DNA of 64,000 bases from an uncultured candidate division Zixibacteria bacterium (GTDB taxonomy: Bacteria > Zixibacteria > MSB-5A5 > UBA10806): NCBI GenBank assembly GCA_963817915.1, contig CAWFQL010000012.1:512001-576000 (forward strand), written 5' to 3'. The position numbers were made by a program, and so were the translations under genes. Every line of letters begins with the position of its first letter. Within the stretch, counting starts at the first letter, position 1. The notes beneath the pieces are model-generated. The model made no database searches and was not told the origin of the DNA. It saw nothing but the letters and a program-made list of their open reading frames with translations. Shown here piece by piece: positions 2-57,373 of the stretch.

Positions 2-2797
2 CCGGGTGCTGACCAGAGTCTTGGTATTAGACTGTTGGGACAAATCTCCAACGCCTCTATCATCAACAATTATATTGATGGTGCGGCAGTAGGCTTTAGA
101 GGACAAATCTGGAATGGTCACATCGCGTTAAATTCAAATATCTACTCCAATAGTTTCACGAATAATACTCTCAATTTAGAATGGCAGGGAGCAGCTGCGA
201 TTAATGCCTCCGACAACTGGTGGGGGATAAATACGCCATCCGGTGTGGCTTCCCTGGTCAGTCCATTAGTAGATTATACGCCCTGGCTTTATTCCGGCTT
301 CGATACCGATCCCGGTACCAATGGATTCCAGGGCGACCTGGCAATATTATATGTCGATGACAACAGCTCTCAGACTGGCTCTATAAGCAGAATTCAAGAA
401 GCAATCAATCAAGTTACCGGTACCAGCGTATTAATCGCTCCCGGCAATTACATCGAGCAGGTGGTGGTCACAAAACCAGGCTTAGTCTTAACAGGTGCTG
501 GTTCGCACAGCGACCCATTGACAAACACCATAATTCAATCGCCAACTTCACTCACATATTATTTTAGAACAAGCTTGAATAATTATCCTATCATCGGTTT
601 TGATGGTATTGCAAGTGGCAGCATTCAAAATTGCAGAATTGATGGCGCAGGCAGGGGCAACAGCAATTATCGCTTTGTTGGAATTGGATTCTGGAATGCA
701 GGCGGCTCTGTGAGTAATTGCATTATTACCGGAATCCAGGATACTCCATTCAGCGGTTCCCAGCATGGAAATGGCATTTATACTTACAATAATACCGGCG
801 GCCCTTATGTTATTAACGTGGACAATACCGGTATCTACGATTGCCAGAAGAACGGCATGACATTAAGCGGCAACGGCATGACGGCGAATGTGTCAAATTG
901 TCTGGTTGTCGGTCACGGTCCGACTACCATCACTGCCCAAAATGGTATTCAGATCAGTAACGGTGCGATAGGGACAATAATTGACTCCGAAATTTCAGGC
1001 ATTAATTACACGGGTTCACAAAATGCTTCTGCATCCGGAGTATTGCTTTATTATCCTCCGGGAGCCGTTACCTTAAGCGGGAATAGTATTCATGATTGCC
1101 AGGGTGCACTCAATGCCTATTTCGCCAGCTCTCTTAACATCGTGGGCAATACCTTCAACCTAAACGGCTTTGCGTTTATATGGGGCGGAATCGGGACGAT
1201 CGTGAATGGCAACACGTTTACAAATAGCGATCAGGCATTGTATGTATCCGATGATACAAACGCGGTATTTAGCAATAATGTCCTTAATACCAACAACTAC
1301 GGAATCATCGCGGATGGCGCTTGCCTTAATCAGAATTATACCGGCAACACGATTACCGGAAATATGGCGACCGGTATTGTTGTTCAACCTTACGATATTT
1401 ACGAACCGGCAGGGATGTCATTCCGGGCTAACAATATCAGCGGGAATGCCTCAGGACTCGAAAATGCAACCTCGAATCTAATAGATGCCACCGGAAATTG
1501 GTGGGGGGATGTGCAGGGCCCGCTGGTATCTACCCTGCGCTCCGGGAATAACCTCAGAGTCAGACCAAATTGGATATCGCGGATGGATGGATCGCCCGAA
1601 GATAAGCCAAATCTCGCCGAAAGATCTCTTCTGCAGAGTGCGTCCGAATCGGGAATCTCGAAACAGAAAATATCAGCTTCAGCCTCCACTTCCCGCGGTG
1701 CTTCGGGCAACACCATAGCCTCGATTCTTACCAATGGCGACGGCATTTCAGGTCTTATTGATTATTCTCCCTGGTGGGGCGCCAATTACGTCGGAGATCC
1801 TCATTCATCACCATGGGGTTGGTGGATGAATCCTTCAAATGCATCCAATATCCAGGAGTCAATCAATTCAGCTTCATCTGGCGATAGCATTCTTGTTCTC
1901 CCCGAAACTTACTCGGGAACCGGCAATTTCAATATTGATTTCGGCGGAAAGAATCTGAGACTATTCGGCGCCGATAGTATCGAGAATGTGATAATAGACT
2001 GTCAACATGCTGGACGGGCCTTCCACTTCCATAGTGGCGAGAGCTCATCGGCAATGGTCAAAGGATTCACGATTAAGAACGGCTCCGCAACCGGAAACGG
2101 TGGAGCGATTCTAATCGAAAATTCAAGTTCCCCGCAAATTCTACATTCTTTGATAATTCAAAATCGGGCCAGCGGTAATGGGGGGGCAATTTGCATTTCA
2201 AATTCCAGCCCGTCTATTAGAAACAACACGATTCTATGGAATAGATCAACGGGCGATGGCGGAGGACTATATATCGCAAACTCCAGTCCCATCGTACTGC
2301 ACACCATTATCTGGCAGGATACCGGGTCTGTCGGAAATGAAATTGCGGCTTCAGGCGGTAGCCCATCGATCACTTACTCTGATATCGACGGCGGTTGGCC
2401 GGGCGAGGGCAATATCGATTGCGATCCCAATTTCTGCGACCCGGAAAACGGCAATTTCTATATTTCAGATCTCTCTTGCTGCCTTAATTCCGGCATAGGC
2501 GGAAATAATATCGGAGCGTTCGAGCTTGGATGCACCGGCGATTTCATCCCTGGCGATGCAAATGCCAGCGGTACTGTCAACGGCCTGGATGTTGTCTATA
2601 TGGTCAATTATTTCAAGGATACCGGGCCGCCTATTCCTGCCCCGATCTGGCGCGCCGATGCCAACGGGAATTGCATGGTGAATGGGTTAGACGTTGTTTA
2701 TATGGTTAATTTCTTTAAAGGCAGCGGCAATGGACCTATCGATGGAGATTGTTTTGGCAGTGGAGTAAGCTCAAGCTCTCAATCAGAGAGCCGTTAG
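2..2797 (+). CDS. Large secreted right-handed parallel beta-helix (pectin lyase-like) protein with C-terminal dockerin-like domain; 5'-truncated by window edge
   Basis: Frame is open from base 2 (PGADQSLGIRLLGQ...). N/G-rich beta-helix repeats, repeated NWWG and DYTPW/DYSPW motifs, GGAI repeats, duplicated dockerin-like GDANASGTVNGLDVVYMVNYF / ADANGNCMVNGLDVVYMVNFF. Confidence 0.8.
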   Translation, partial: PGADQSLGIRLLGQISNASIINNYIDGAAVGFRGQIWNGHIALNSNIYSNSFTNNTLNLEWQGAAAINASDNWWGINTPSGVASLVSPLVDYTPWLYSGFDTDPGTNGFQGDLAILYVDDNSSQTGSISRIQEAINQVTGTSVLIAPGNYIEQVVVTKPGLVLTGAGSHSDPLTNTIIQSPTSLTYYFRTSLNNYPIIGFDGIASGSIQNCRIDGAGRGNSNYRFVGIGFWNAGGSVSNCIITGIQDTPFSGSQHGNGIYTYNNTGGPYVINVDNTGIYDCQKNGMTLSGNGMTANVSNCLVVGHGPTTITAQNGIQISNGAIGTIIDSEISGINYTGSQNASASGVLLYYPPGAVTLSGNSIHDCQGALNAYFASSLNIVGNTFNLNGFAFIWGGIGTIVNGNTFTNSDQALYVSDDTNAVFSNNVLNTNNYGIIADGACLNQNYTGNTITGNMATGIVVQPYDIYEPAGMSFRANNISGNASGLENATSNLIDATGNWWGDVQGPLVSTLRSGNNLRVRPNWISRMDGSPEDKPNLAERSLLQSASESGISKQKISASASTSRGASGNTIASILTNGDGISGLIDYSPWWGANYVGDPHSSPWGWWMNPSNASNIQESINSASSGDSILVLPETYSGTGNFNIDFGGKNLRLFGADSIENVIIDCQHAGRAFHFHSGESSSAMVKGFTIKNGSATGNGGAILIENSSSPQILHSLIIQNRASGNGGAICISNSSPSIRNNTILWNRSTGDGGGLYIANSSPIVLHTIIWQDTGSVGNEIAASGGSPSITYSDIDGGWPGEGNIDCDPNFCDPENGNFYISDLSCCLNSGIGGNNIGAFELGCTGDFIPGDANASGTVNGLDVVYMVNYFKDTGPPIPAPIWRADANGNCMVNGLDVVYMVNFFKGSGNGPIDGDCFGSGVSSSSQSESR

Positions 2798-2945
2798 AGC
2801 GATGACGAAATCAATAACAAGAGTTATTCCCGATAATAAAGGGAGGCAAAAGAGCTAAAAAATCCAGGTGACCGGTTGATGCGGTAAAGGATTTCGAATC
2901 TTGAACCCCGCCATTATTGTTGATCTGGGATAGCAATAAAAGCTG

Positions 2946-2977
2946 AGGGGGGCTGGCAAAGCCCCCCTATTTTATTT
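2946..2977 (+). terminator. Rho-independent terminator
   Basis: AGGGGGGCT-GGCAA-AGCCCCCCT followed by ATTTTATTT. Confidence 0.75.
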
Positions 2978-2994
2978 ACTCGATTTAAGCCATT

Positions 2995-3105
2995 AAAAAA
3001 ACCAACATTACCATTTAAGGTTGATAATGTTGGTGTCAGGGAATGTTCGGACAACATTGTGGAGGTGTGAGCCTCATGTTGCCAAATCCTGTTGCGCGTA
3101 CGTCC
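2995..3105 (-). ncRNA. Candidate ~110-nt sRNA
   Basis: Minus-strand TTGACA (3140-3135) with weak -10, internal hairpin GGCAACAT/ATGTTGTC, terminal hairpin ACCAACATTATC/GGTAATGTTGGT plus T run; no ORF in track. Confidence 0.4.
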
Positions 3106-3134
3106 ACACGCAATAAAAGGCCAAATTACCCTTT

Positions 3135-3182
3135 TGTCAATACTACTAATATGCGCATATAATGCGTAGTGCTATATACGTA
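3135..3182 (-). promoter_or_regulatory. Sigma70-type -35 with upstream 20-bp palindromic operator (copy 2)
   Basis: TGCGTAGTGCTATATACGTA (3163-3182) lies 22 nt from minus-strand TTGACA; same layout as 3631-3678. Confidence 0.55.
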
Positions 3183-3309
3183 ATCGCTTTTTGCCCAGTT
3201 CTGGAATTCGCTTAAAGTGTTGTAAATAAGCGGATTAGCGTAATTTGCTGATTTTTGGCAAATTGGGCAGCTCTATAGGTATTTTTTTTGTCAGATTTCA
3301 TTCTTTTTG

Positions 3310-3600
3310 AAAAGAAAAATGCGGAAAGATTGTCTTTCGCTTCAAATGGGCACCCGGCCGGGTCATTTATTTTCAAAATGACCCAGCCTGCCCTTCCCCT
3401 TTTACCCTCCCCAGGACATTTAACCAAGATAAAAGAGGAGCGATTTCCCTGAAGGTTTAGGTTCCTGAATCCAACTATCAAAGATCATTAATCAGGATCC
3501 GTCCGTGAATGAGGACTTTGGCCGTTTTATTTTTCTTCCATGAAAATTGACCAGTATCAAATACCCTCTTAGCTGCAAATTCACGATAAAATAAAAATCT
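3310..3600 (-). ncRNA. Candidate ~290-nt GGA-rich sRNA
   Basis: Promoter at 3631-3678; eight GGA motifs on the minus strand between 3395 and 3539; long hairpin 3356-3388; terminal hairpin 3321-3340 followed by ATTTTTCTTTT. Confidence 0.4.
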
Positions 3601-3630
3601 AATGTGTTATTTAATCAACTTTATGGTTTA

Positions 3631-3678
3631 TGTCAACACGAGTAAAATACGGATAGATTGCGTATACAATTATACGCA
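3631..3678 (-). promoter_or_regulatory. Sigma70-type -35 with upstream 20-bp palindromic operator (copy 1)
   Basis: Perfect TGCGTATA-CAAT-TATACGCA (3659-3678), 22 nt from minus-strand TTGACA (3636-3631). Confidence 0.6.
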
Positions 3679-5505
3679 TTAATGGCTTTGCAGGAAGGTC
3701 GCCAGATTTATTTTTCTGTTCGTCAAACCCAATTTTTTTCGTATCACTTCACGATGCTTGTGAACTGTCGCGATTGAAATCCTAAAGGCGCGGGCGATAT
3801 CATGTGAATTGGCGCCTTCTTTGATCATATTGCATATTTCTGCTTCTCTGGAAGACAGCTTGGAGTACAAGTGCGCCGATCCGCCGCTGGAATCGGCAAT
3901 CTCTTCCAGCCCTTTCCTTAATAATTCATAATAAACGAGGCTGATCGAGCCATCCCTTTTCTTTACTTTATGAAGAGTGGGGAGAAGCTGGTTGTCGACC
4001 TTGTTTATTATCTGCTGCCTGATTGCATTTTTTTCGCCTTCTATATGTGCCATGACTTCTCGAAGCGCGATATTTTTTTCCTGCAGGGCGATTCTCTCTT
4101 TATCAAGTGTATCCAGACTCATAATTTCAAGTATCTTCTTGCAGGCTATATCAACGAGCTCTTCTAAGTAGGCCGCAATTTCGCTGTTTGGCCGATTCCC
4201 GTCGAACGGAGTATCGGCCGACAGCCAGCCGATGATTTTCCCAGAGCTATCAAAAAGCGGTACGAAAAATTCATCGTTAGTTTTCCATCTAAGCCCGGCG
4301 GCCCCCAAATCTTTGGAGGGCTTTATCTGTCGGCCAAAATCATCCGCGAAAATGCCGCTTTCGGCCGGTACAAAGTATGAATTGCTAATTCGAAACTCGT
4401 CCTGCGTCATCTTTCTCGATAGATCATCGTCCGGCGCCGGAGAGCTCCTGGCGGCCATTAAAGTTTTTGAATCCAACCCGTAATGCCCAATATGGAGAAT
4501 CTCTTTTCTATCACCATGAATTGTCATTACTGATCGCTCGAATAAAAGCGCGTCATAGATGGCGTGGCAAGCGTAAGAAAGGCAGTCATCTATCGAATAT
4601 GACGTCCTGATTTTGTTCAAAAGGTCTGAACGAGCCTTTTCGCGGGCGTTTAGCTTTCTTTGTTCCGTAATATCAGTCGCGATAATCTGGACACCTGAAA
4701 TTATCCCCTTGCTGTCTTCAATCGGCTGGACTACGGCATGTATCCATCTTATTTCTTCATTGATAATTGTTTCTACAACCTGATTCAGCGTCCGATTATT
4801 CGCAATTGCGTCATTTATGATCCCGATATGCTTGAGACCCTTGTCACCGGGAAATAAACTGGATATTGATTTGCCGAGAAAATCCTCTGGTTTACCTCCC
4901 AGGATTTGCGCGGCATTCTTATTCATTTGCAGGAAAATCATATCGTGCGAAATCCAGCATATAGCCTCGACAGCATTTTCCATGAGCATGCGAAACTTTT
5001 TTTCGCTATTAATTACCCCCTCGGTCGCTTTCTTCCTTTCGGTGATATCTATCATGGAGCCGAACGCGCCGATATATCGGCCCTTTTTGTCGAATCGAGG
5101 AGTTCCCGAAAGCATTACAGTTTTGTAATTGCCCTTGCCCGTGAGAATATCCAATTCATAGAGAGATGGCTGCCCCGACACGCGCTGCTCAAGCTGATTT
5201 TCGATAATTTTAAGTTGGTCATAAGGAATATAATTTAGAATACTTTGTCCCTTGACGCTCTCGAATGAATCTTCTTCAACAATCCGTAATAGCGCGGGAT
5301 TGCAATACTGAATATTATGGTTTTCATCTATTATACAAAGCCCTTCAAAAACAGAATTGAAGAGCTCATGGTAATGGACACCGAATTCTTCCAATGACTC
5401 AACTGATTTCGGATCATTTTCCGAATCCTGATTCTCAGAACGTTGATTCCTTAATGAATCAAGCTCTCTGATCAAATCTTCTTTTGATTTAGAATAATCG
5501 TCCAT
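3679..5505 (-). CDS. PAS-PAS-GAF-like sensor fused to LuxR-type HTH transcriptional regulator
   Basis: Two PAS/PAC units ending DITERK and DITEQR, GAF-like region, coiled coil, C-terminal LSSREAEICNMIKEG...IARAFRISIATVHKHREVIRKKLG. Confidence 0.88.
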   Translation of the reverse strand: MDDYSKSKEDLIRELDSLRNQRSENQDSENDPKSVESLEEFGVHYHELFNSVFEGLCIIDENHNIQYCNPALLRIVEEDSFESVKGQSILNYIPYDQLKIIENQLEQRVSGQPSLYELDILTGKGNYKTVMLSGTPRFDKKGRYIGAFGSMIDITERKKATEGVINSEKKFRMLMENAVEAICWISHDMIFLQMNKNAAQILGGKPEDFLGKSISSLFPGDKGLKHIGIINDAIANNRTLNQVVETIINEEIRWIHAVVQPIEDSKGIISGVQIIATDITEQRKLNAREKARSDLLNKIRTSYSIDDCLSYACHAIYDALLFERSVMTIHGDRKEILHIGHYGLDSKTLMAARSSPAPDDDLSRKMTQDEFRISNSYFVPAESGIFADDFGRQIKPSKDLGAAGLRWKTNDEFFVPLFDSSGKIIGWLSADTPFDGNRPNSEIAAYLEELVDIACKKILEIMSLDTLDKERIALQEKNIALREVMAHIEGEKNAIRQQIINKVDNQLLPTLHKVKKRDGSISLVYYELLRKGLEEIADSSGGSAHLYSKLSSREAEICNMIKEGANSHDIARAFRISIATVHKHREVIRKKLGLTNRKINLATFLQSH

Positions 5506-49905: not shown

Positions 49906-51280
49906 ATGGAAAATTCGCTAAAAAGAAATCAAATAATCAAATTGGAGATCGAAGACCTGGCGTTTGGCGGCATGGGAGTCGCCAAGGTCGATAATTTCGT
50001 GGTCTTTGTCGAATCGGGGCTTCCGGGTGATATTGTCGAAGTCACTATACGACGTATCAAAGGCAATTTTGCCGAAGCCAGAATTAATAATATTCTGACA
50101 CCTTCATCTCATCGTATAGCCCCGGTCTGCGAGCATTTCGATTACTGCGGTGGCTGCAAATGGCAAAATCTCGAATATGCGATTCAAAAAAAATACAAAG
50201 AAGATCAGGTTCGTTCGGCGCTGATTCATCTGGCCGGTATCGCCGATCCACCGGTCGAACCGATTATCAGCGCGCATAAGATTTATTATTATCGCAATAA
50301 GATGGAATTTTCATTTCATGTGGGAGAGAAAGGCGAAACTCTTCTTGGGTCTTCATGTCGCGGGGAGATTCCAGGATATCTTCCAGCTCAACAAATGTCA
50401 TCTGCAATCCGAGCTTTCCAATGAAATAGTAAAGTATGTCAGAAGCCGTTCGGTGGAGCTCGGACTGCCTCCCTATCATATTGTCACCCATCAGGGCTTT
50501 CTGAGATTTCTTGTCATCCGCGAAGGCAAATTTACAAACCAGACATTGATCAACTTTGTAACCGGTCAGGGTGATTATCCCAATCTAAAAATTCTGGCCT
50601 CGGAGATCGCGGAACTGTTCAAGCCTGTGGTTTCGATCTCTCAGACTATCAACTCCGCCAAGGCCAATATCGCTCGTGGAAGCGAGACCATTCTTCTGCA
50701 CGGGATTGACCATATTCATGAGATTCTCGGTGAACGAAAATATCGAATTTCGGCGAGTTCATTCTTCCAGACGAATAGTTATCAGGTCCAGAGATTATAT
50801 GACCTTGCAGTTGAATTAGCCCAGCCCGAAAGATTCGAAAATATGCTTGATCTCTATACAGGCACCGGGACTATCGCCATCTATTTCGCGGGAATGGTTA
50901 ATAAGGTAACCGGTGTCGAGTCAGTGGAAGCGGCAATTGAAGATGCCAAGATCAATGCCAGACTCAATTCTGTCTCCAATTGCGATTTCCTGGCGGCCAA
51001 TGTCGAGGATTTCCTCAAAAATGAAGCTCTGTCGGATAGAAAATATAATATCGTAGTGCTCGACCCGCCGCGCGCCGGATGCCATCCTGATGTGATCAAA
51101 GCGTTAATAGCCATGAAGCCCCAAAAAATTGTCTATATCTCCTGCAATCCCGCGACACTCGCCAGAGATCTCAAAATGCTTCTTGAAAATGAATACAACC
51201 TCGATAGGGTTGTGCCAATCGATCTTTTTCCTCATACTTATCATATCGAAGCCGCCTGTCGATTGAGCTTAAAAAAATAA
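49906..51280 (+). CDS. rlmD: 23S rRNA m5U1939 methyltransferase (frameshift near 50345)
   Basis: TRAM domain, CEHFDYCGGC, YRNKMEF, SFFQTN, LDPPRAG, YISCNPATLARD, DLFPHT. Confidence 0.92.
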
Positions 51281-51422: not shown

Positions 51423-52538
51423 ATGAAGATAATTCAATCATCGAATATTCACATCGGGAAATGCTTCGAGAAGCAAGGCTTGGCCGGTAATAAGCTTAGG
51501 GCCGCAATCAAGAAGACATTTTCCGCAATTATCGATCTCGCGAGATCGGAATCAGCCGACCTGCTTTTGCTGTCCGGCGACCTTTTCGATTCCAACGATA
51601 TTTCGCAAAATCAGCTCGATTTCTTCATTTCGGAAGTCAAGCGGCTCGAACGAACCAAGGTCGCGCTTTTGCCCGGAACTAAGGATCATTACAAAACCGG
51701 CGGCTTTTGGGAGCAGTGGAATGCGCTCAATCCGGCCGCAAATTTATTGCTTATGACGAATATCGAATCCCCATATATAGAAATCCCTTCGATCTCCACT
51801 ACTCTATACGGAATTCCATGCATGGCAGAGACATCGCCAAGAAATCCATTGAAGAATCTCAAACGTACAGGGAAAAATAGATACCATGTCGCGATGGTAT
51901 ATGGGAATTTGATCGATGACAAAAATCCAGGCGGCAATATTTATCCTTTTACCCCCGATGATCTTATTGCAGGCGGATTCGATTATTATGCCTTGGGCGG
52001 CCAGTTGACTATGAGAGACTGTTCTTCGATCGGAATTCCCGCGGCCTATAGCGGATCGCCTGAAGCAATCTCGCCCGAGCTCGAGGGTGCAGGTAATGTT
52101 CTCATAGTCAAACTTGAAAGAGAAAATGTCACCATAGAGCCCAAAAAAGTTGGCAATATCTCATGGAAAGAAATCGAAATACAGATGAATGATGTCGCCA
52201 GTATTGATGATTTGAAAAGCAAAATCAACAAACTCAATGGCGATGGAGTACTGCTTAAAGTTACATTGAAAGGCCTCGTATTACTTGATGCCAATTTCAA
52301 TATCAAAGAACTTACCAACGAGCTTTCCGATAATTTCCTGAAATTGGAAATTATTGATAAAATGAGTGTTCTTCCCGATGATGTAGTCGAAGTTAAACTC
52401 CATGAGAAAACTATCATGGGTCAGTATCTTAAGATAATGGTCGAAAAAATGAAGACCGCCAAGGGTCCCGCCCGCACCAATCTCGAAGAGTCATTGAAGG
52501 TCGGCTACTCATTGCTTTCAGGAAAGGAGATCTGGTAA
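51423..52538 (+). CDS. Mre11/SbcD (YhaO)-like phosphoesterase fold with degenerate metal ligands
   Basis: SNIHIG, SGDLFD, PGTKD, ALGGQL, YSGSPE; adjacent to a Rad50-like ATPase. Confidence 0.8.
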   Translation: MKIIQSSNIHIGKCFEKQGLAGNKLRAAIKKTFSAIIDLARSESADLLLLSGDLFDSNDISQNQLDFFISEVKRLERTKVALLPGTKDHYKTGGFWEQWNALNPAANLLLMTNIESPYIEIPSISTTLYGIPCMAETSPRNPLKNLKRTGKNRYHVAMVYGNLIDDKNPGGNIYPFTPDDLIAGGFDYYALGGQLTMRDCSSIGIPAAYSGSPEAISPELEGAGNVLIVKLERENVTIEPKKVGNISWKEIEIQMNDVASIDDLKSKINKLNGDGVLLKVTLKGLVLLDANFNIKELTNELSDNFLKLEIIDKMSVLPDDVVEVKLHEKTIMGQYLKIMVEKMKTAKGPARTNLEESLKVGYSLLSGKEIW

Positions 52539-52539
52539 A

Positions 52540-54654
52540 ATGCAGATTTCCCAGCTATTCCTGAGAAATTTCGGCAAATTCGAAAATCTTTCAATCGATT
52601 TTACGCCGGGCCTGAATATAATCAAAGGTCCTAACGAAGCGGGTAAATCGACTTTGGCCGAAGCGGTGACTGCCGCCTTTTTCATGAATCCTGAAAAAAA
52701 TAGCGATCAGATAAAAAAGATTGTGAAGTGGCGTTGCGATGACGCTCCATCCCTCATGGCGGTTCTGAACACTGGTACAGACTCATTTAAGCTCATCAAG
52801 GATTTCAGCAAGGGCGTGACAGAATTGGTCGGGGATAAGGCCGCTTCAAAGGAAAAATCCGGCAAGGATGTCGATGATTGGCTTACAAGTCAATTGGGGA
52901 TGTCATCGGAAGAGATTTTTAAAGCAACCGCTTGCATAAATCAAGGGGAAATGAATCAGATAGAGGGGTCGATCGGGGCAATTCAGGGAAAACTCGAATC
53001 GCTCGTGACCGGCGGCAGGGAAGATGAAGCGGGCTCAATGATAATTGAAAAAATCGAGCAAAGAATTCGAGCTATAACCGGCCCGGACGGTGTGTCAGGA
53101 AAAGAGCTTGCGAGGATCAACGAGATCTCAAAAGATATCGATTATAATATCGAAAAGCTATCGCGGGATATCGCCACGCTCAGGACCAGGAGAGCCGATC
53201 TGATTCAGGTGGAAGTTGCTTATAAGAATGTCAAAGAGGACTTGCTGAAAAATAAAGATACTTTTGAAAAAAACAAAAAAGCCACGAAGCTCGAGCAGGA
53301 ATATCAGGCCAGGATCAAGGAATGCACCGATCTGGAAGCAAAGTCCGTAGAAGCCAAGGAATCGATCAAGAAGATAAAAGAATACCGCGATCGGCAGGCT
53401 CAAGCGAAAAAAATAGAATCTAAGGACATCAAGGAATTAGAAACAATTGAGACAAATCTTAATTATCTTCAGCCCAAAAAACGGGAATTAGAAGAGGATG
53501 TCAACGAGGCCACGCTTGATTATCATGCTTACCATATCGGAATAGTTTATTATGCCAGCACTGGAATTGGAATCCTTGGCAGTGTAGCGTCCGCGGTATT
53601 CTATTGGCTTAATGTTTTTAGCGGCATCGCCCCATACAGTCTGGCCTTATCGATCGGACTATTCGTATTGGGTGTCGTTGCTTGTATTTCCAGGAGACAG
53701 CATAGAGCCTATCTCAAAAACAATCTGGAAAAACAAAATCACAAGCTTGGGGAATTGGATTTCGAAATAAACCATCAAAGCGAATTGCTCAAGGATATAC
53801 TCAGAAAATACCTGGTATCATCGACTGACGATCTCAAGCGCAATCTCTGGCAAAATGACGAGCTTGAAAACCAGGTAGCGCGCGAAAAAGAACGTTACGA
53901 CAGCCTGATTCACAATTCCACTTCCGAGGAAATCGATAAAACTTTGGATCAATTAAACCAGCAGATTGCCAATATGGGAATCGAGCGCAAAGACCTTGTG
54001 CAATACGTCGTGGATGAATCAGAGGTAAATCGGCAGCAACTGATAATCGATCAATTTCAGGAGAGAATCAATGACCTCGAGCGAGAACGAGCTGTTCTAC
54101 GTAGCCAGATTGAGACCGCTGAAGGCGGCACGGAACTTTTATCAAGCTATATCGAAAGAAAGGCCGAGCTAAAATCGCGCGCCGAGGATTTATTGCATGA
54201 AGTGGCCATATTAGGGCTAACAGTCCAATGTGTAACCGAAGCCAGGCAGAATGTTTTGGTTTCGACTCTCGAAGTGCTAAATGGCAGAACATCCGAAATT
54301 CTCGGTAGGCTGACGTCGGGAAAATATTCCAAAGTTCGTTTTGACAAATCAAATCTCAAGTTCGAAGTCTATTCGGAAGACAAAAAGGAATGGGTCGACC
54401 CTGAATCCGAGTTGTCGGCTGGCACAGTAGATCAGATTTATCTTGCCGCACGGCTGGCATTGGCCGATCTGATTTCCGAAGACAGATATCCGGTCATGAT
54501 TTTGGATGATCCATTTGTCAATTATGACGGCGAACGGCTGGAAAACGCCATGAAAATAATCAAAGAGATGTCTCAGAATCACCAAATTCTCCTGCTAACC
54601 AGCCAGGATAATTTCGACAAATGGGCTGATTCAACAATAGTTCTTCCCAAATAA
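52540..54654 (+). CDS. YhaN-like SMC/Rad50-family ATPase with central hydrophobic hairpin
   Basis: Walker A GPNEAGKST, long coiled coils, two TM-like helices, signature LSAGT, Walker B ILDDP. Confidence 0.85.
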   Translation: MQISQLFLRNFGKFENLSIDFTPGLNIIKGPNEAGKSTLAEAVTAAFFMNPEKNSDQIKKIVKWRCDDAPSLMAVLNTGTDSFKLIKDFSKGVTELVGDKAASKEKSGKDVDDWLTSQLGMSSEEIFKATACINQGEMNQIEGSIGAIQGKLESLVTGGREDEAGSMIIEKIEQRIRAITGPDGVSGKELARINEISKDIDYNIEKLSRDIATLRTRRADLIQVEVAYKNVKEDLLKNKDTFEKNKKATKLEQEYQARIKECTDLEAKSVEAKESIKKIKEYRDRQAQAKKIESKDIKELETIETNLNYLQPKKRELEEDVNEATLDYHAYHIGIVYYASTGIGILGSVASAVFYWLNVFSGIAPYSLALSIGLFVLGVVACISRRQHRAYLKNNLEKQNHKLGELDFEINHQSELLKDILRKYLVSSTDDLKRNLWQNDELENQVAREKERYDSLIHNSTSEEIDKTLDQLNQQIANMGIERKDLVQYVVDESEVNRQQLIIDQFQERINDLERERAVLRSQIETAEGGTELLSSYIERKAELKSRAEDLLHEVAILGLTVQCVTEARQNVLVSTLEVLNGRTSEILGRLTSGKYSKVRFDKSNLKFEVYSEDKKEWVDPESELSAGTVDQIYLAARLALADLISEDRYPVMILDDPFVNYDGERLENAMKIIKEMSQNHQILLLTSQDNFDKWADSTIVLPK

Positions 54655-54737
54655 TAGTCATAAATCAATTCCCCCAAAAACCTTTTATAAAAATCTCTTG
54701 ATTTCAATGCTATAACCCTTTTTTATATAATTGCCAT

Positions 54738-55232
54738 ATGGAAAATCTATGGGCGGCCTGGCGCCGCGATTTCATTTTGGGCCCCAAAGAGAATGGATGC
54801 GTATTCTGCAAAAGATTGAAGCAGCATACTGACCGCGACAATCTGATACTTTTCAGGGCTCGTAAAACCTTTGTAATTATGAACCGCTATCCGTACAATG
54901 GCGGCCATCTATTAATCGCGCCCAAAGCCCATAAGGCTGATATACAAAAACTGACCCCATCCGAATCCGCCGAAATGTTCGAGCTTTCTCGAATCGCCAT
55001 TGGCATGCTTAAAAAGATAATGCCGGCCGACGGATTCAATCTGGGAATGAATTTAGGTGAAATCGCCGGGGCAGGCATCGCCGATCATCTTCATGTGCAT
55101 GTAGTGCCTCGTTTCAACGGTGATACCAATTTCATGCCGGTTGTAGGCGATACCAAAGTGCAGTCTTTATCGCTTTACGATATCTACGACATGCTGAAGC
55201 CGAAATTCGATTCCATCAGAGGGAAATTTTGA
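54738..55232 (+). CDS. HIT family protein (Ap4A phosphorylase-like)
   Basis: LWAAWR, CVFC, NRYPYNGGH, GFNLGMN, HLHVHVVPR, DTNFM. Confidence 0.9.
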   Translation: MENLWAAWRRDFILGPKENGCVFCKRLKQHTDRDNLILFRARKTFVIMNRYPYNGGHLLIAPKAHKADIQKLTPSESAEMFELSRIAIGMLKKIMPADGFNLGMNLGEIAGAGIADHLHVHVVPRFNGDTNFMPVVGDTKVQSLSLYDIYDMLKPKFDSIRGKF

Positions 55233-56827
55233 AGATTCCCAAAAAGAAAGAACTGCTTCAACTTCAAAAAAAATACCGCACTGATAAAAAGATCGGCGAG
55301 GTTTATGGCGTACCCGCGAGACTGGTAGCTTATTGGCGTTCGAAGAAGAAAATAGGCCCGTATTCTTTCCCGAAATATTCCGAAGACAAAATTATGGATA
55401 TTTGGGAAAGGTTCGGTGATGATGCCCGCGCCGGAACCGAATTGGGAATCTCCAAGGCCGGATTCAGGCAATGGCGCCGGAAATATGACATCATAGACAA
55501 GCCGATTCAGTTAAGGCTCGAGCAGCTCGAGCTCCCTTTGACCGATATATCAAAAAAGAAAAATTCGCGAAAAGAAACCATTGTCCAGCGAATCCTTGCC
55601 AGGAAGGCAGGATTGAAACGAGCCGACGTCGGCCAATTTATCGAAATCGAGCCAGACCTCGCGATTTCCAACAATAACGCCATCGATGTTATCAATCAGA
55701 TGGCGTCACTTGGCACTGATAGAATATGGGATCCATCAAAGATCGCGATTGTCCTTGATCATAGAACGACCAGCGAATCCAACGGTTCGATTCATAAATA
55801 TAAAACCGCTCGGGAATTTGCCAAAAAGCATCGAATCAGGAATTTCTTCGATCTCGGAGAGGGAATGTGTCATCATCTTGTCCTCGAACAGGGCCTCGTG
55901 CTTCCCGGACATACTATACTGGGGACCGAAACCTACGCGACCACCTATGGCTGTATCGGGGCATTTTCCGCCAAAATCGATGTCTTAGAAATGGCGGCAT
56001 TATGGGCGACAGGCAGGATATGGCTCAGGGTCCCGGAAACCATGAAGATCGTATTAAAGGGACATTTGAACAGGGGAGTATTCGCGAAAGATATTATTCT
56101 GAATCTAATTCGCGATATTCCGGTCAGCGATGTTGATTATAGGGCGATTGAATTCTCCGGCCCCGCCATTCAAGCGATGTCAATGGCTGATCGTTCAATC
56201 TTGACAAGTATGGCCTCCGAAATGAAGGCGAAATCTGCGATCATTTCAATCGATGAGATGGCATCGAGATATATGAAGAAAATTACAAAGATGAAATTCT
56301 GGCCGATAACGCCTGATCCCGATGCCGCCTATAGCCATGAAATCGAATTTGATATTTCCTATCTGACTCCGCAGATCGCCTGCCATGCCGGGGCCAACAA
56401 TACACGTCCTATCGAGGAAATGGTTGGCAAAAAAATTGACCAGGTAATATTGGGCAGTTGTATCAATGGGAAAATCGAGGATCTCGAAATCGCCGCCGGT
56501 ATTTTAAAAGGACGAAAAATCAATCGCGAATTGCGGATGACAATTGTACCGGGTTCGAGAAAGACATACCTCGAGGCTCTCGAAAAGGGGTTGATCAAGA
56601 TATTCGTTGAATCCGGCTGCGCGGTTGCGTATCCCGGACTCGATTCGTATTCGGGAGTCGATGATAGCATCCTATCTTCCGGGGATAAAATAATGACTAC
56701 GACCGGTTATCAAACCGATATCGAAAATGATAACGTTAATTCCGAGATATTTATTGCCTCCCCGGCAACCACGGCAGCCTCGGCGCTCGAAGGTATAATT
56801 GCCGACCCGAGGAAATATATCAAATGA
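55229..56827 (+). CDS. Tandem-HTH fused LeuC/HacA-like aconitase-family large subunit, catalytically degenerate
   Basis: Two HTH-like units (aa about 18-42 and 64-88), then ETIVQRILA, VLDH, GMCH, ATGRIWLRVPET, AKDIIL, GSCING, ASPATTAASA. Confidence 0.85.
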   Translation: MKIPKKKELLQLQKKYRTDKKIGEVYGVPARLVAYWRSKKKIGPYSFPKYSEDKIMDIWERFGDDARAGTELGISKAGFRQWRRKYDIIDKPIQLRLEQLELPLTDISKKKNSRKETIVQRILARKAGLKRADVGQFIEIEPDLAISNNNAIDVINQMASLGTDRIWDPSKIAIVLDHRTTSESNGSIHKYKTAREFAKKHRIRNFFDLGEGMCHHLVLEQGLVLPGHTILGTETYATTYGCIGAFSAKIDVLEMAALWATGRIWLRVPETMKIVLKGHLNRGVFAKDIILNLIRDIPVSDVDYRAIEFSGPAIQAMSMADRSILTSMASEMKAKSAIISIDEMASRYMKKITKMKFWPITPDPDAAYSHEIEFDISYLTPQIACHAGANNTRPIEEMVGKKIDQVILGSCINGKIEDLEIAAGILKGRKINRELRMTIVPGSRKTYLEALEKGLIKIFVESGCAVAYPGLDSYSGVDDSILSSGDKIMTTTGYQTDIENDNVNSEIFIASPATTAASALEGIIADPRKYIK

Positions 56828-57318
56828 AACGAACGATTGAAGCCACTGCGCAGCGACTGAGCGACAATATCCAATGCAAAACGATCCTTGCCGAAAAATA
56901 TTGGCTGAATAGCTCGATTTCTGAGATTACGCAACATCTCTTTGAGGGCTATGCAGTCAAACATCCGCCTCGAATCGCGGAAGGCGATGTTATTGTAGCC
57001 GGGAATAATTTTGGAAGCGGAGTATTTCACGCCAATACGGTTAACGGACTCAAGGCTTTAAAGGTATCGTGCATAATCGCATCTTCCATTAATCGTATTT
57101 TCTTCCGCAATGCCATAAATATCGGCCTGCCGCTGGTTATCAACAATCAGGCCTATGATAAAATCGAATCCGGCGAATTAATAAAGATTGATTTTGAAAA
57201 GGGAGTAATATCGTGCAAAAAAGGCTCGCTTTTATTTCCACCATATCCGGATTTCATGCTAAGGTTCCTCAGTGCCGGCGGCCTGATTGGATACGCAAAA
57301 AAGAAAATAGGCGCTTAG
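56824..57318 (+). CDS. LeuD/HacB-like small subunit, catalytically degenerate
   Basis: VAGNNFGSG, RIFFRNAINIGLP, AGGLI; ATGA overlap with the large subunit gene. Confidence 0.85.
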   Translation: MKRTIEATAQRLSDNIQCKTILAEKYWLNSSISEITQHLFEGYAVKHPPRIAEGDVIVAGNNFGSGVFHANTVNGLKALKVSCIIASSINRIFFRNAINIGLPLVINNQAYDKIESGELIKIDFEKGVISCKKGSLLFPPYPDFMLRFLSAGGLIGYAKKKIGA

Positions 57319-57344: not shown

Positions 57345-57373
57345 AAAAAAGGGCGAAAACATTCGCCCTTTTT
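57345..57373. terminator. Bidirectional terminator
   Basis: AAAAAAGGGCGAA-AACA-TTCGCCCTTTTT between convergent genes. Confidence 0.8.

Follow-up and report, generated by a model that had tools for sequence, protein, structure and literature searches.

A conserved Zixibacteria fusion of a tandem helix-turn-helix head to a mostly decayed LeuC-type body: a candidate clamp-tethered DNA-binding regulator

The window analyzed here is a stretch of 64,000 nucleotides from an uncultured candidate division Zixibacteria bacterium (assembly GCA_963817915.1, contig CAWFQL010000012.1, positions 512,001 to 576,000 of the forward strand), and its subject is a fusion gene that lies in the middle of three overlapping genes on the + strand. 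A HIT-family nucleotide enzyme gene (54738-55232) is followed by the fusion gene (55229-56827), which starts at TTG and encodes 532 aa, and then by a gene for a decayed LeuD/HacB-type small subunit (56824-57318). A preliminary description of this DNA had reported the three open reading frames (ORFs) with 4-nt overlaps, and the coordinates and both junctions (TTGA, then ATGA) agree with it. All features of the fusion gene are likewise on the + strand. Its head consists of two helix-turn-helix (HTH) repeats (55244-55345 and 55382-55483), and is joined by a linker carrying the hexamer QLELPL (residues 99-104; 55523-55540) to a LeuC/HacA-type body (55574-56827). The extension of about 110 aa with two HTH-like repeats had been noticed before, and structural models show two three-helix units there. 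Overlooked were the clamp-binding-type motif at 99-104 and the presence of an intact fused enzyme in 5 of the 19 families of relatives that we sampled.

The large and small subunits and the HIT protein

The large subunit scored above the NCBIfam cut-offs of PRK00402 and hacA_fam, which places it in the LeuC/HacA subfamily. Its predicted structure matched 4kp1 with a Foldseek E value of 4.6e-50 and a root-mean-square deviation of 2.2 Å over 424 columns at 34% identity, and IRP1 structures were also among its structural matches. The fold of aconitase domains 1-3 and the separate domain 4 are both present at the locus. To call individual residues, the large subunit was aligned to MJ0499 of M. jannaschii and the small subunit to the partner of MJ0499. 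Every catalytic substitution listed in the preliminary description, in both subunits, proved to be real. In the large subunit HD is replaced by NN (148-149), DSHT by ETYA (234-237), CxxC by LDSY (471-474) and NRNF by GYQT (493-496). One of three cysteine ligands of the iron-sulfur (Fe-S) cluster, C411 of the GSC motif, is retained, and the other two positions hold L (471) and Y (474). In the small subunit DTD is replaced by QCK and GSSRE by GVFHA, so the general-base serine is gone. The body keeps 5 of 18 active-site positions, all 18 of which are kept in 47 of 47 unfused homologues. Catalysis in the aconitase superfamily needs all three cysteines as well as the serine base (PMC8184944). Judged by these residues, the copy in the window is catalytically dead, as had been proposed.

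Because the fold is preserved and this genome has both subunits in a coupled arrangement, there is room for the idea of a surviving enzyme with a new chemistry, and aconitase X shows that the superfamily can rewire its cluster site (PMC8184944). We find this barely credible, since the catalytic serine and two cysteines are lost here and the replacements vary by lineage without settling on a new conserved site.

The separate, intact leuCD anticipated in the preliminary description was found twice, as LeuCD-type pairs on contigs C6 and C16, so that the genome does not depend on the window copy. The C6 pair (221420-223564) may serve as the aconitase of the tricarboxylic acid cycle because it lies between ORFs that by eye resemble malate dehydrogenase and isocitrate dehydrogenase; its large subunit ends in a long lysine/alanine-rich tail. 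The C16 pair (1234-4631) lies downstream of ORFs that by eye resemble a CoA-transferase and an HMG-CoA lyase.

The HIT protein matched PF01230 (E 3e-12) and has an intact HLHVH triad. It most resembles the ATP adenylyltransferase (diadenosine tetraphosphate, or Ap4A, phosphorylase) type, its match to NF052622 (E 3.4e-38) lying below the cut-off of that family. The gene is single copy (one tblastn match in the genome) and adjoins the fusion in 61 of the 62 genomes of the census described below, so the linkage reported earlier stands. For the functional tie to Ap4A turnover that had been proposed along with it, only this gene linkage was seen, and the near-constant coupling may reflect function or merely a shared promoter. 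A frameshift in the HIT gene of one relative (L008) and another in the head of a second (L025, 2828-3127) are likely assembly errors.

Distribution and decay of the fusion in the phylum

A search with the head returned 185 proteins among 299 candidates. Nearly all of the best 120 of these matches were 520-550 aa long with an aconitase domain, and those with a named organism were from Zixibacteria; the 115 with a length of at least 500 aa were aligned. A head profile built from 28 sequences matched 265 of 285 genomes of the phylum, including 194 of the 198 good ones, and nearly always gave one match per genome. Chance, an assembly artefact or a one-off fusion is ruled out by this distribution, and the expectation that the fusion would be conserved beyond this assembly is borne out. 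Among 1.84 billion protein representatives, 31 fell under 1e-30; those inspected were fusions, apparent fragments, arrays of HTH repeats and P0162, a stand-alone head. A viral collection gave one weak match of 27 residues. The head was found in 0 of 301 outgroup genomes from the phylum of a Chryseobacterium record, a blank obtained in a search that included no positive genome. Two loci titled Ignavibacteria (L088 and L092) carry the typical fusion locus, and their labels may be wrong. The fusion genes are annotated as isopropylmalate dehydratase. No published description of the fusion was found in the literature searched, a search in which supplements and most subscription papers were outside the scope and two queries were loose; the earlier statement that no such system had been described is in line with this.

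To follow the fate of the body, a census of one locus per genome was assembled from 62 genomes in 19 families, a non-random sample in which the order of the window genome is over-represented. The large subunit was fully intact in 11 of the 62 genomes (families f3, f8, f12, f18 and f19) and decayed in 51, so that 5 of 19 families retain a fully intact fused enzyme and 14 do not. Conservation of the motif loss, which the preliminary description had named as a check, holds in part: decay is widespread, while the exact losses seen in the window are not family-wide. Even in the window's own family the three cysteines are all kept in 11 of 13 genomes, and this family supplies most of the 15 decayed copies (of 51) that keep the triad. 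Many triad-keeping decayed relatives have extra cysteines next to the first ligand (residue 410) and in the former NRNF loop (493-496), hinting at an altered metal site in some decayed lineages. Cluster binding could still occur in three-cysteine relatives of family f1, but not in the window copy.

A tree of 112 bodies was built with FastTree after removal of the 18 active-site columns. All 87 decayed rows fell in one branch (support 99) together with one nearly intact row, and the cysteine triad switched state 9 times along it. At its base the tree does not settle how intact fused enzymes relate to unfused ones, and long branches meet; for that reason we make no claim that the fusion arose once. 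Its closest unfused relatives are intact enzymes (70-73% identity), two of them carrying the names of KSB1 and FCB-group bacteria.

The decayed body is under purifying selection. The ratio of nonsynonymous to synonymous substitution rates (dN/dS) was computed for 13 pairs of relatives. No value came from the 4 saturated ones, and three of the usable pairs draw on the same three genomes. In the 8 unsaturated decayed pairs the ratio was 0.08-0.15 for the body and 0.01-0.06 for the head, and in one intact pair it was 0.086. Pseudogene decay of the body is ruled out by these values.

Selection of this kind bears on the idea that the head, binding DNA and the clamp, is the sole functional part and that the body is a passenger that must stay folded or cannot be cleanly removed. 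The conserved residues of the body are structural, its identity falls to about 25-30% in distant families, and the stand-alone head P0162 exists, all of which this idea accommodates. A single stop codon could remove the body, yet in each of the 50 decayed cases examined it spans 342-465 aligned residues, and the 15 shorter matches resemble, by appearance, mostly contig-end fragments. The agreement of the decayed-body ratios with that of the intact pair also speaks against a passenger, and we consider this explanation very improbable.

What the selected body does is constrained by where its conservation lies. None of the 18 pocket positions is conserved at 65% or more across the 14 decayed families, and the conserved columns of decayed bodies are almost all core positions common to unfused enzymes. 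The small subunit, which closes the cleft, was missing at the locus beside 32 of the 51 decayed large subunits, decayed beside 11, intact beside 3 and undecidable (locus edge) beside 5. An obligate dead heterodimer is ruled out by these counts, and the proposal of the preliminary description that both subunits were co-opted is not supported across the family. The loci of family f7 (L031, L034 and L117) have a fully intact small subunit downstream of a large subunit that is among the most decayed, with 0-1 of the 18 sites kept, so this small subunit probably serves another LeuC. A new conserved surface on the dead body was also looked for; three positions were flagged, too few to build on, the clearest being a K/R at 347 (86% of decayed, 82% of intact fused and 24% of unfused proteins).

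These results also weigh on the sensor model of the preliminary description, a heterodimeric pseudoenzyme in which a metabolite, an Fe-S cluster or an Ap4A-linked nucleotide in the old active site switches DNA binding. Purifying selection on the body, the linked HIT gene and the existence of moonlighting aconitases such as IRP1 and CitB are all compatible with it, and the cysteines kept by a minority of decayed copies make a local Fe-S role possible. The absence of a conserved pocket, together with conservation almost confined to the core, speaks against both a ligand sensor common to the family and the co-option of a heterodimer. A shared Fe-S sensor is rejected both for the phylum, given the repeated changes of the triad, and for this copy, given its single remaining ligand. 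With the small subunit so often missing, a sensor in the old active site is improbable.

The head and the linker motif

The head was modelled twice as a monomer, and both models gave two three-helix units with block predicted local distance difference test (pLDDT) values of 80-93. Helices span residues 6-16, 19-26 and 30-39 in repeat 1 and residues 52-62, 65-72 and 76-85 in repeat 2. Structural matches of HTH type had Z scores of 5.0-5.7 and included a mycobacteriophage repressor, Reb1, the GcrA DNA-binding domain and Mos1. A Foldseek search with the head gave no match at E<=0.001, its Pfam HTH matches were all under the cut-off with no Mor family among them, and its ESM Atlas leads were all HTH-like and all under 0.9. 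Residues L32, Y35, W36, K39 and K40 of repeat 1 are invariant in 28 of 28 sequences, and W82 and R83 of repeat 2 in 61 of 61 genomes. The head is net basic, with 24 K/R against 12 D/E over 90 residues. Its fold, charge and conservation suggest that it binds DNA. Where the third helix of each unit begins, the exposed positions differ between families, so that sequence specificity may be low or shifting. Relatives of the head occur as arrays of 4-12 copies of the same 45-residue HTH unit (P0159, P0167, P0169, P0170, P0174 and P0176-P0178), in which other domains were not found. These arrays score strongly as HTH_23 and could be modular DNA readers.

The QLELPL motif was present in 62 of 62 genomes and all 19 families, in 60 by pattern and in two by eye (position 4 is isoleucine in the first of these, and the second copy is frameshifted). 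Among the 61 aligned genomes Q99 is invariant, positions 2, 4 and 6 are always hydrophobic and position 5 is free, and conservation collapses immediately after the hexamer. In a wider set of 226 distinct proteins the motif was matched by 217, and 5 more differ only by M at position 6; the remaining 4 comprise two apparently truncated proteins and two stand-alone heads. The published consensus of the hexameric clamp motif is Q-aliphatic-x-[L/M]-x-[F/L] (bioRxiv 10.64898/2026.05.27.728225, PMC11139829), and the variation of the linker fits it except for F at position 4 in 51 of the 217. As a background for this genome, the strict pattern was found in 6 and a loose pattern in 76 of 2856 crude ORFs. 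Residues 98-110 had pLDDT values below 50 in the monomer model, placing the motif in a stretch predicted to be disordered and exposed, and the linker was not folded back in either monomer model.

A complex of residues 86-117 with the DnaN of this genome (L048, 1501-2616) was then modelled alongside three controls. The complex scored 0.65 and the best control 0.02. Of 157 solved complexes 116 come up to the mark used, as do 2 of 215 mismatched pairs, figures that are approximate when one's own alignments are used. Runs shared at least 68% of contacts. In the model Q99 contacts N320, M365 and L367 of the clamp, L102 contacts T170, G172, H173, L175 and L363, and L104 contacts V246. The contacts of Q99 and L102 match subsites II and I, respectively, of the E. 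coli clamp, judged by residue identity and spacing. The motif, its pattern of conservation and this model together suggest that the linker binds in the beta sliding clamp's peptide pocket. The stand-alone head P0162 (106 aa) ends in the same hexamer with the KPxxL part gone, which suggests an ancestor made of head plus tail that was later fused to a downstream leuC. The locus of P0162 itself was not among the matches listed from two scans, which were relatives at 40-69% identity.

The motif could have been kept for another reason. An ordinary sequence-specific transcription factor with a vestigial enzyme scaffold might use it for self-association, for RNA polymerase or for another partner, the motif then only resembling that of clamp ligands. 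The strong constraint on the tandem HTH would suit such a factor, as would linker conservation that reaches past the hexamer to P92 and L95, and the pass of the clamp model may be a memory of solved complexes. The hydrophobic i, i+2 spacing, the invariant Q and the free fifth position are nevertheless the clamp pattern, the linker does not fold back in either monomer model, and P0162 drops the KPxxL part yet retains the hexamer. We regard this explanation as unlikely.

A candidate clamp-tethered regulator

The reading that we favor, with modest confidence, is a clamp-tethered DNA-binding regulator carried on an aconitase scaffold of which only the fold is used. The working end of this chromosomal, phylum-core protein would be its N-terminus, where the two three-helix HTH units would bind DNA and the QLELxL linker would dock in the peptide pocket of the clamp. 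Together head and linker could load the protein on DNA at clamps, at or behind replication forks, tying its action to replication. The likeliest action would be replication-coupled transcription control, as for phage Mu C, and the next likeliest fork or chromosome management. The body would have started as a working LeuC-type enzyme fused to the head, a state still seen in 5 of the 19 families; elsewhere loss would have begun with the substrate residues and gone on, repeatedly, to the Fe-S cysteines, and in many cases the small subunit would have disappeared as well. It may persist as a folded scaffold (a spacer, an oligomerization surface or a partner surface) and not as a shared sensor.

Several observations weigh against this reading. 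The invariant P92 and L95 upstream of the hexamer are not accounted for by a minimal clamp motif. The fold of the partner itself was uncertain in the complex (pLDDT 49-52), and because clamp-peptide complexes are well represented among solved structures, the pass of the model measures likeness and is not proof of binding by this copy; any QLxLxL peptide might pass. The best structural matches of the head, which are HTH domains, are middling at the Z scores given above. The dN/dS values come from relatives only, the window's own gene having given no value, and the retention of a body of 340-465 aa has no explanation under the favored reading. No operator was seen in the upstream regions, which offered only a promoter-like word common in the genome, and neighbors with roles in DNA metabolism are patchy: of 17 wider loci, 6 have the Mre11/Rad50-like pair next to the HIT gene, and dnaX and recR lie near the fusion in one further locus only. 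Support from gene neighbors for a link to replication is accordingly weak.

The upstream word, CTTGATTT (54697-54704, + strand), is a -35-like element that families f1 and f2 conserve at a distance of about 30-40 nt upstream of the HIT start. The same word precedes 38 same-strand genes in this genome. We read it as a general -35 promoter element; how common it is before other genes speaks against an operator of the operon. A promoter scan of the region was at chance level. The short distance from the word to the HIT start (54697-54740 in the window) and the lack of an evident purine-rich ribosome site in these two families suggest that the mRNA of the operon is leaderless or nearly so. A terminator-like hairpin with a 12-pair stem (57346-57373, called on the - strand) lies between the small-subunit gene and a convergent gene, and is weak evidence alone, the region having 4 such sites against 3.3 expected. 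Directly upstream of the operon in the window are the Mre11/SbcD-like and Rad50/SbcC-like genes (51423-54654), the nuclease having metal-binding motifs that appear atypical by eye. Further upstream an RlmD-type rRNA methyltransferase (49906-51280) is split into two frames (49906-50424 and 50318-51280), where one relative (L042) has one 464-aa frame; the split may be an assembly error or a real break.

Comparison with known systems brings out what is particular to the fusion. It resembles LeuCD/HacAB (M. jannaschii; PDB 4kp1, 4kp2, 4nqy, 3vba and 2pkp) in fold and two-subunit layout, and differs in its 110-aa head with HTH units and clamp-type motif, in the loss of two cysteines and the serine, and in relatives that often lack the small subunit. 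IRP1 and B. subtilis CitB are active aconitases that bind RNA through the apo cleft under control of cluster switching. The fusion would share with them an aconitase scaffold put to a non-catalytic job related to nucleic acids, whereas its cluster site and catalytic residues are lost and a separate HTH head is fused to it. A role of the fusion as a replacement for Hda or YabA was also considered. Of 29 matching genomes 26 had a single DnaA-family match, and this genome gave no match to YabA; these results serve as context only, since many bacteria lack both Hda and YabA.

Metabolic enzymes and clamp partners offer further parallels. B. subtilis PykA acts at the replisome independently of catalysis (PMC10427196); it is active and binds DnaE, with no clamp link mentioned in that review, whereas the fusion in the window is by its residues dead and carries a clamp-type motif. 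The phage activators MuC and Mor require clamp motifs, and those of MuC are needed for late transcription (PMC12867686). Like the proposed role of the fusion, theirs is that of DNA-binding regulators whose clamp motifs link transcription to replication. The analogy is functional only: Mu C and Mor are 16.5-kDa phage proteins whose motifs are pentameric and which lack an enzyme-derived body, and the fusion is chromosomal, phylum-core and has a hexameric motif. The clamp motif of Hda is one residue off QLELPL (bioRxiv 10.64898/2026.05.27.728225, PMC11139829), and Hda is joined by Pol IV, Pol III alpha's C-terminal motif and RecB among clamp partners with hexameric motifs (also bioRxiv 10.1101/2025.08.20.671105). 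As in these partners, the motif of the fusion lies in a disordered stretch and occupies the same pocket in the model; unlike them, the fusion has no AAA+, polymerase or nuclease domain.

A fuller picture, which we hold only tentatively, is of a near-universal, single-copy factor of the phylum that rides the clamp, reads DNA through its tandem HTH and is built on a LeuC-type Fe-S enzyme. In five families it would still work as an enzyme while being held at the replisome, joining central metabolism to replication by a direct physical link, and the rest would pass through cluster-bearing intermediates to a cluster-free scaffold. If this is true, the phylum holds a living series from an enzyme to a replication-coupled regulator. 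Enzyme-derived regulators and clamp-using transcription factors are already known, and it is their combination in a phylum-core gene that would surprise a specialist. The clamp partners met in the cited literature are replication and repair proteins and the phage Mor/MuC activators; if the clamp link is real, a chromosomal, enzyme-derived HTH protein joins them and would allow one to test directly how replication might be tied to metabolism and gene control. In any case one orthologous gene that exists in intact, cysteine-keeping and wholly decayed states provides a rare natural series of pseudoenzyme evolution, and the annotation as isopropylmalate dehydratase misleads metabolic reconstruction of Zixibacteria in 14 of the 19 families sampled.

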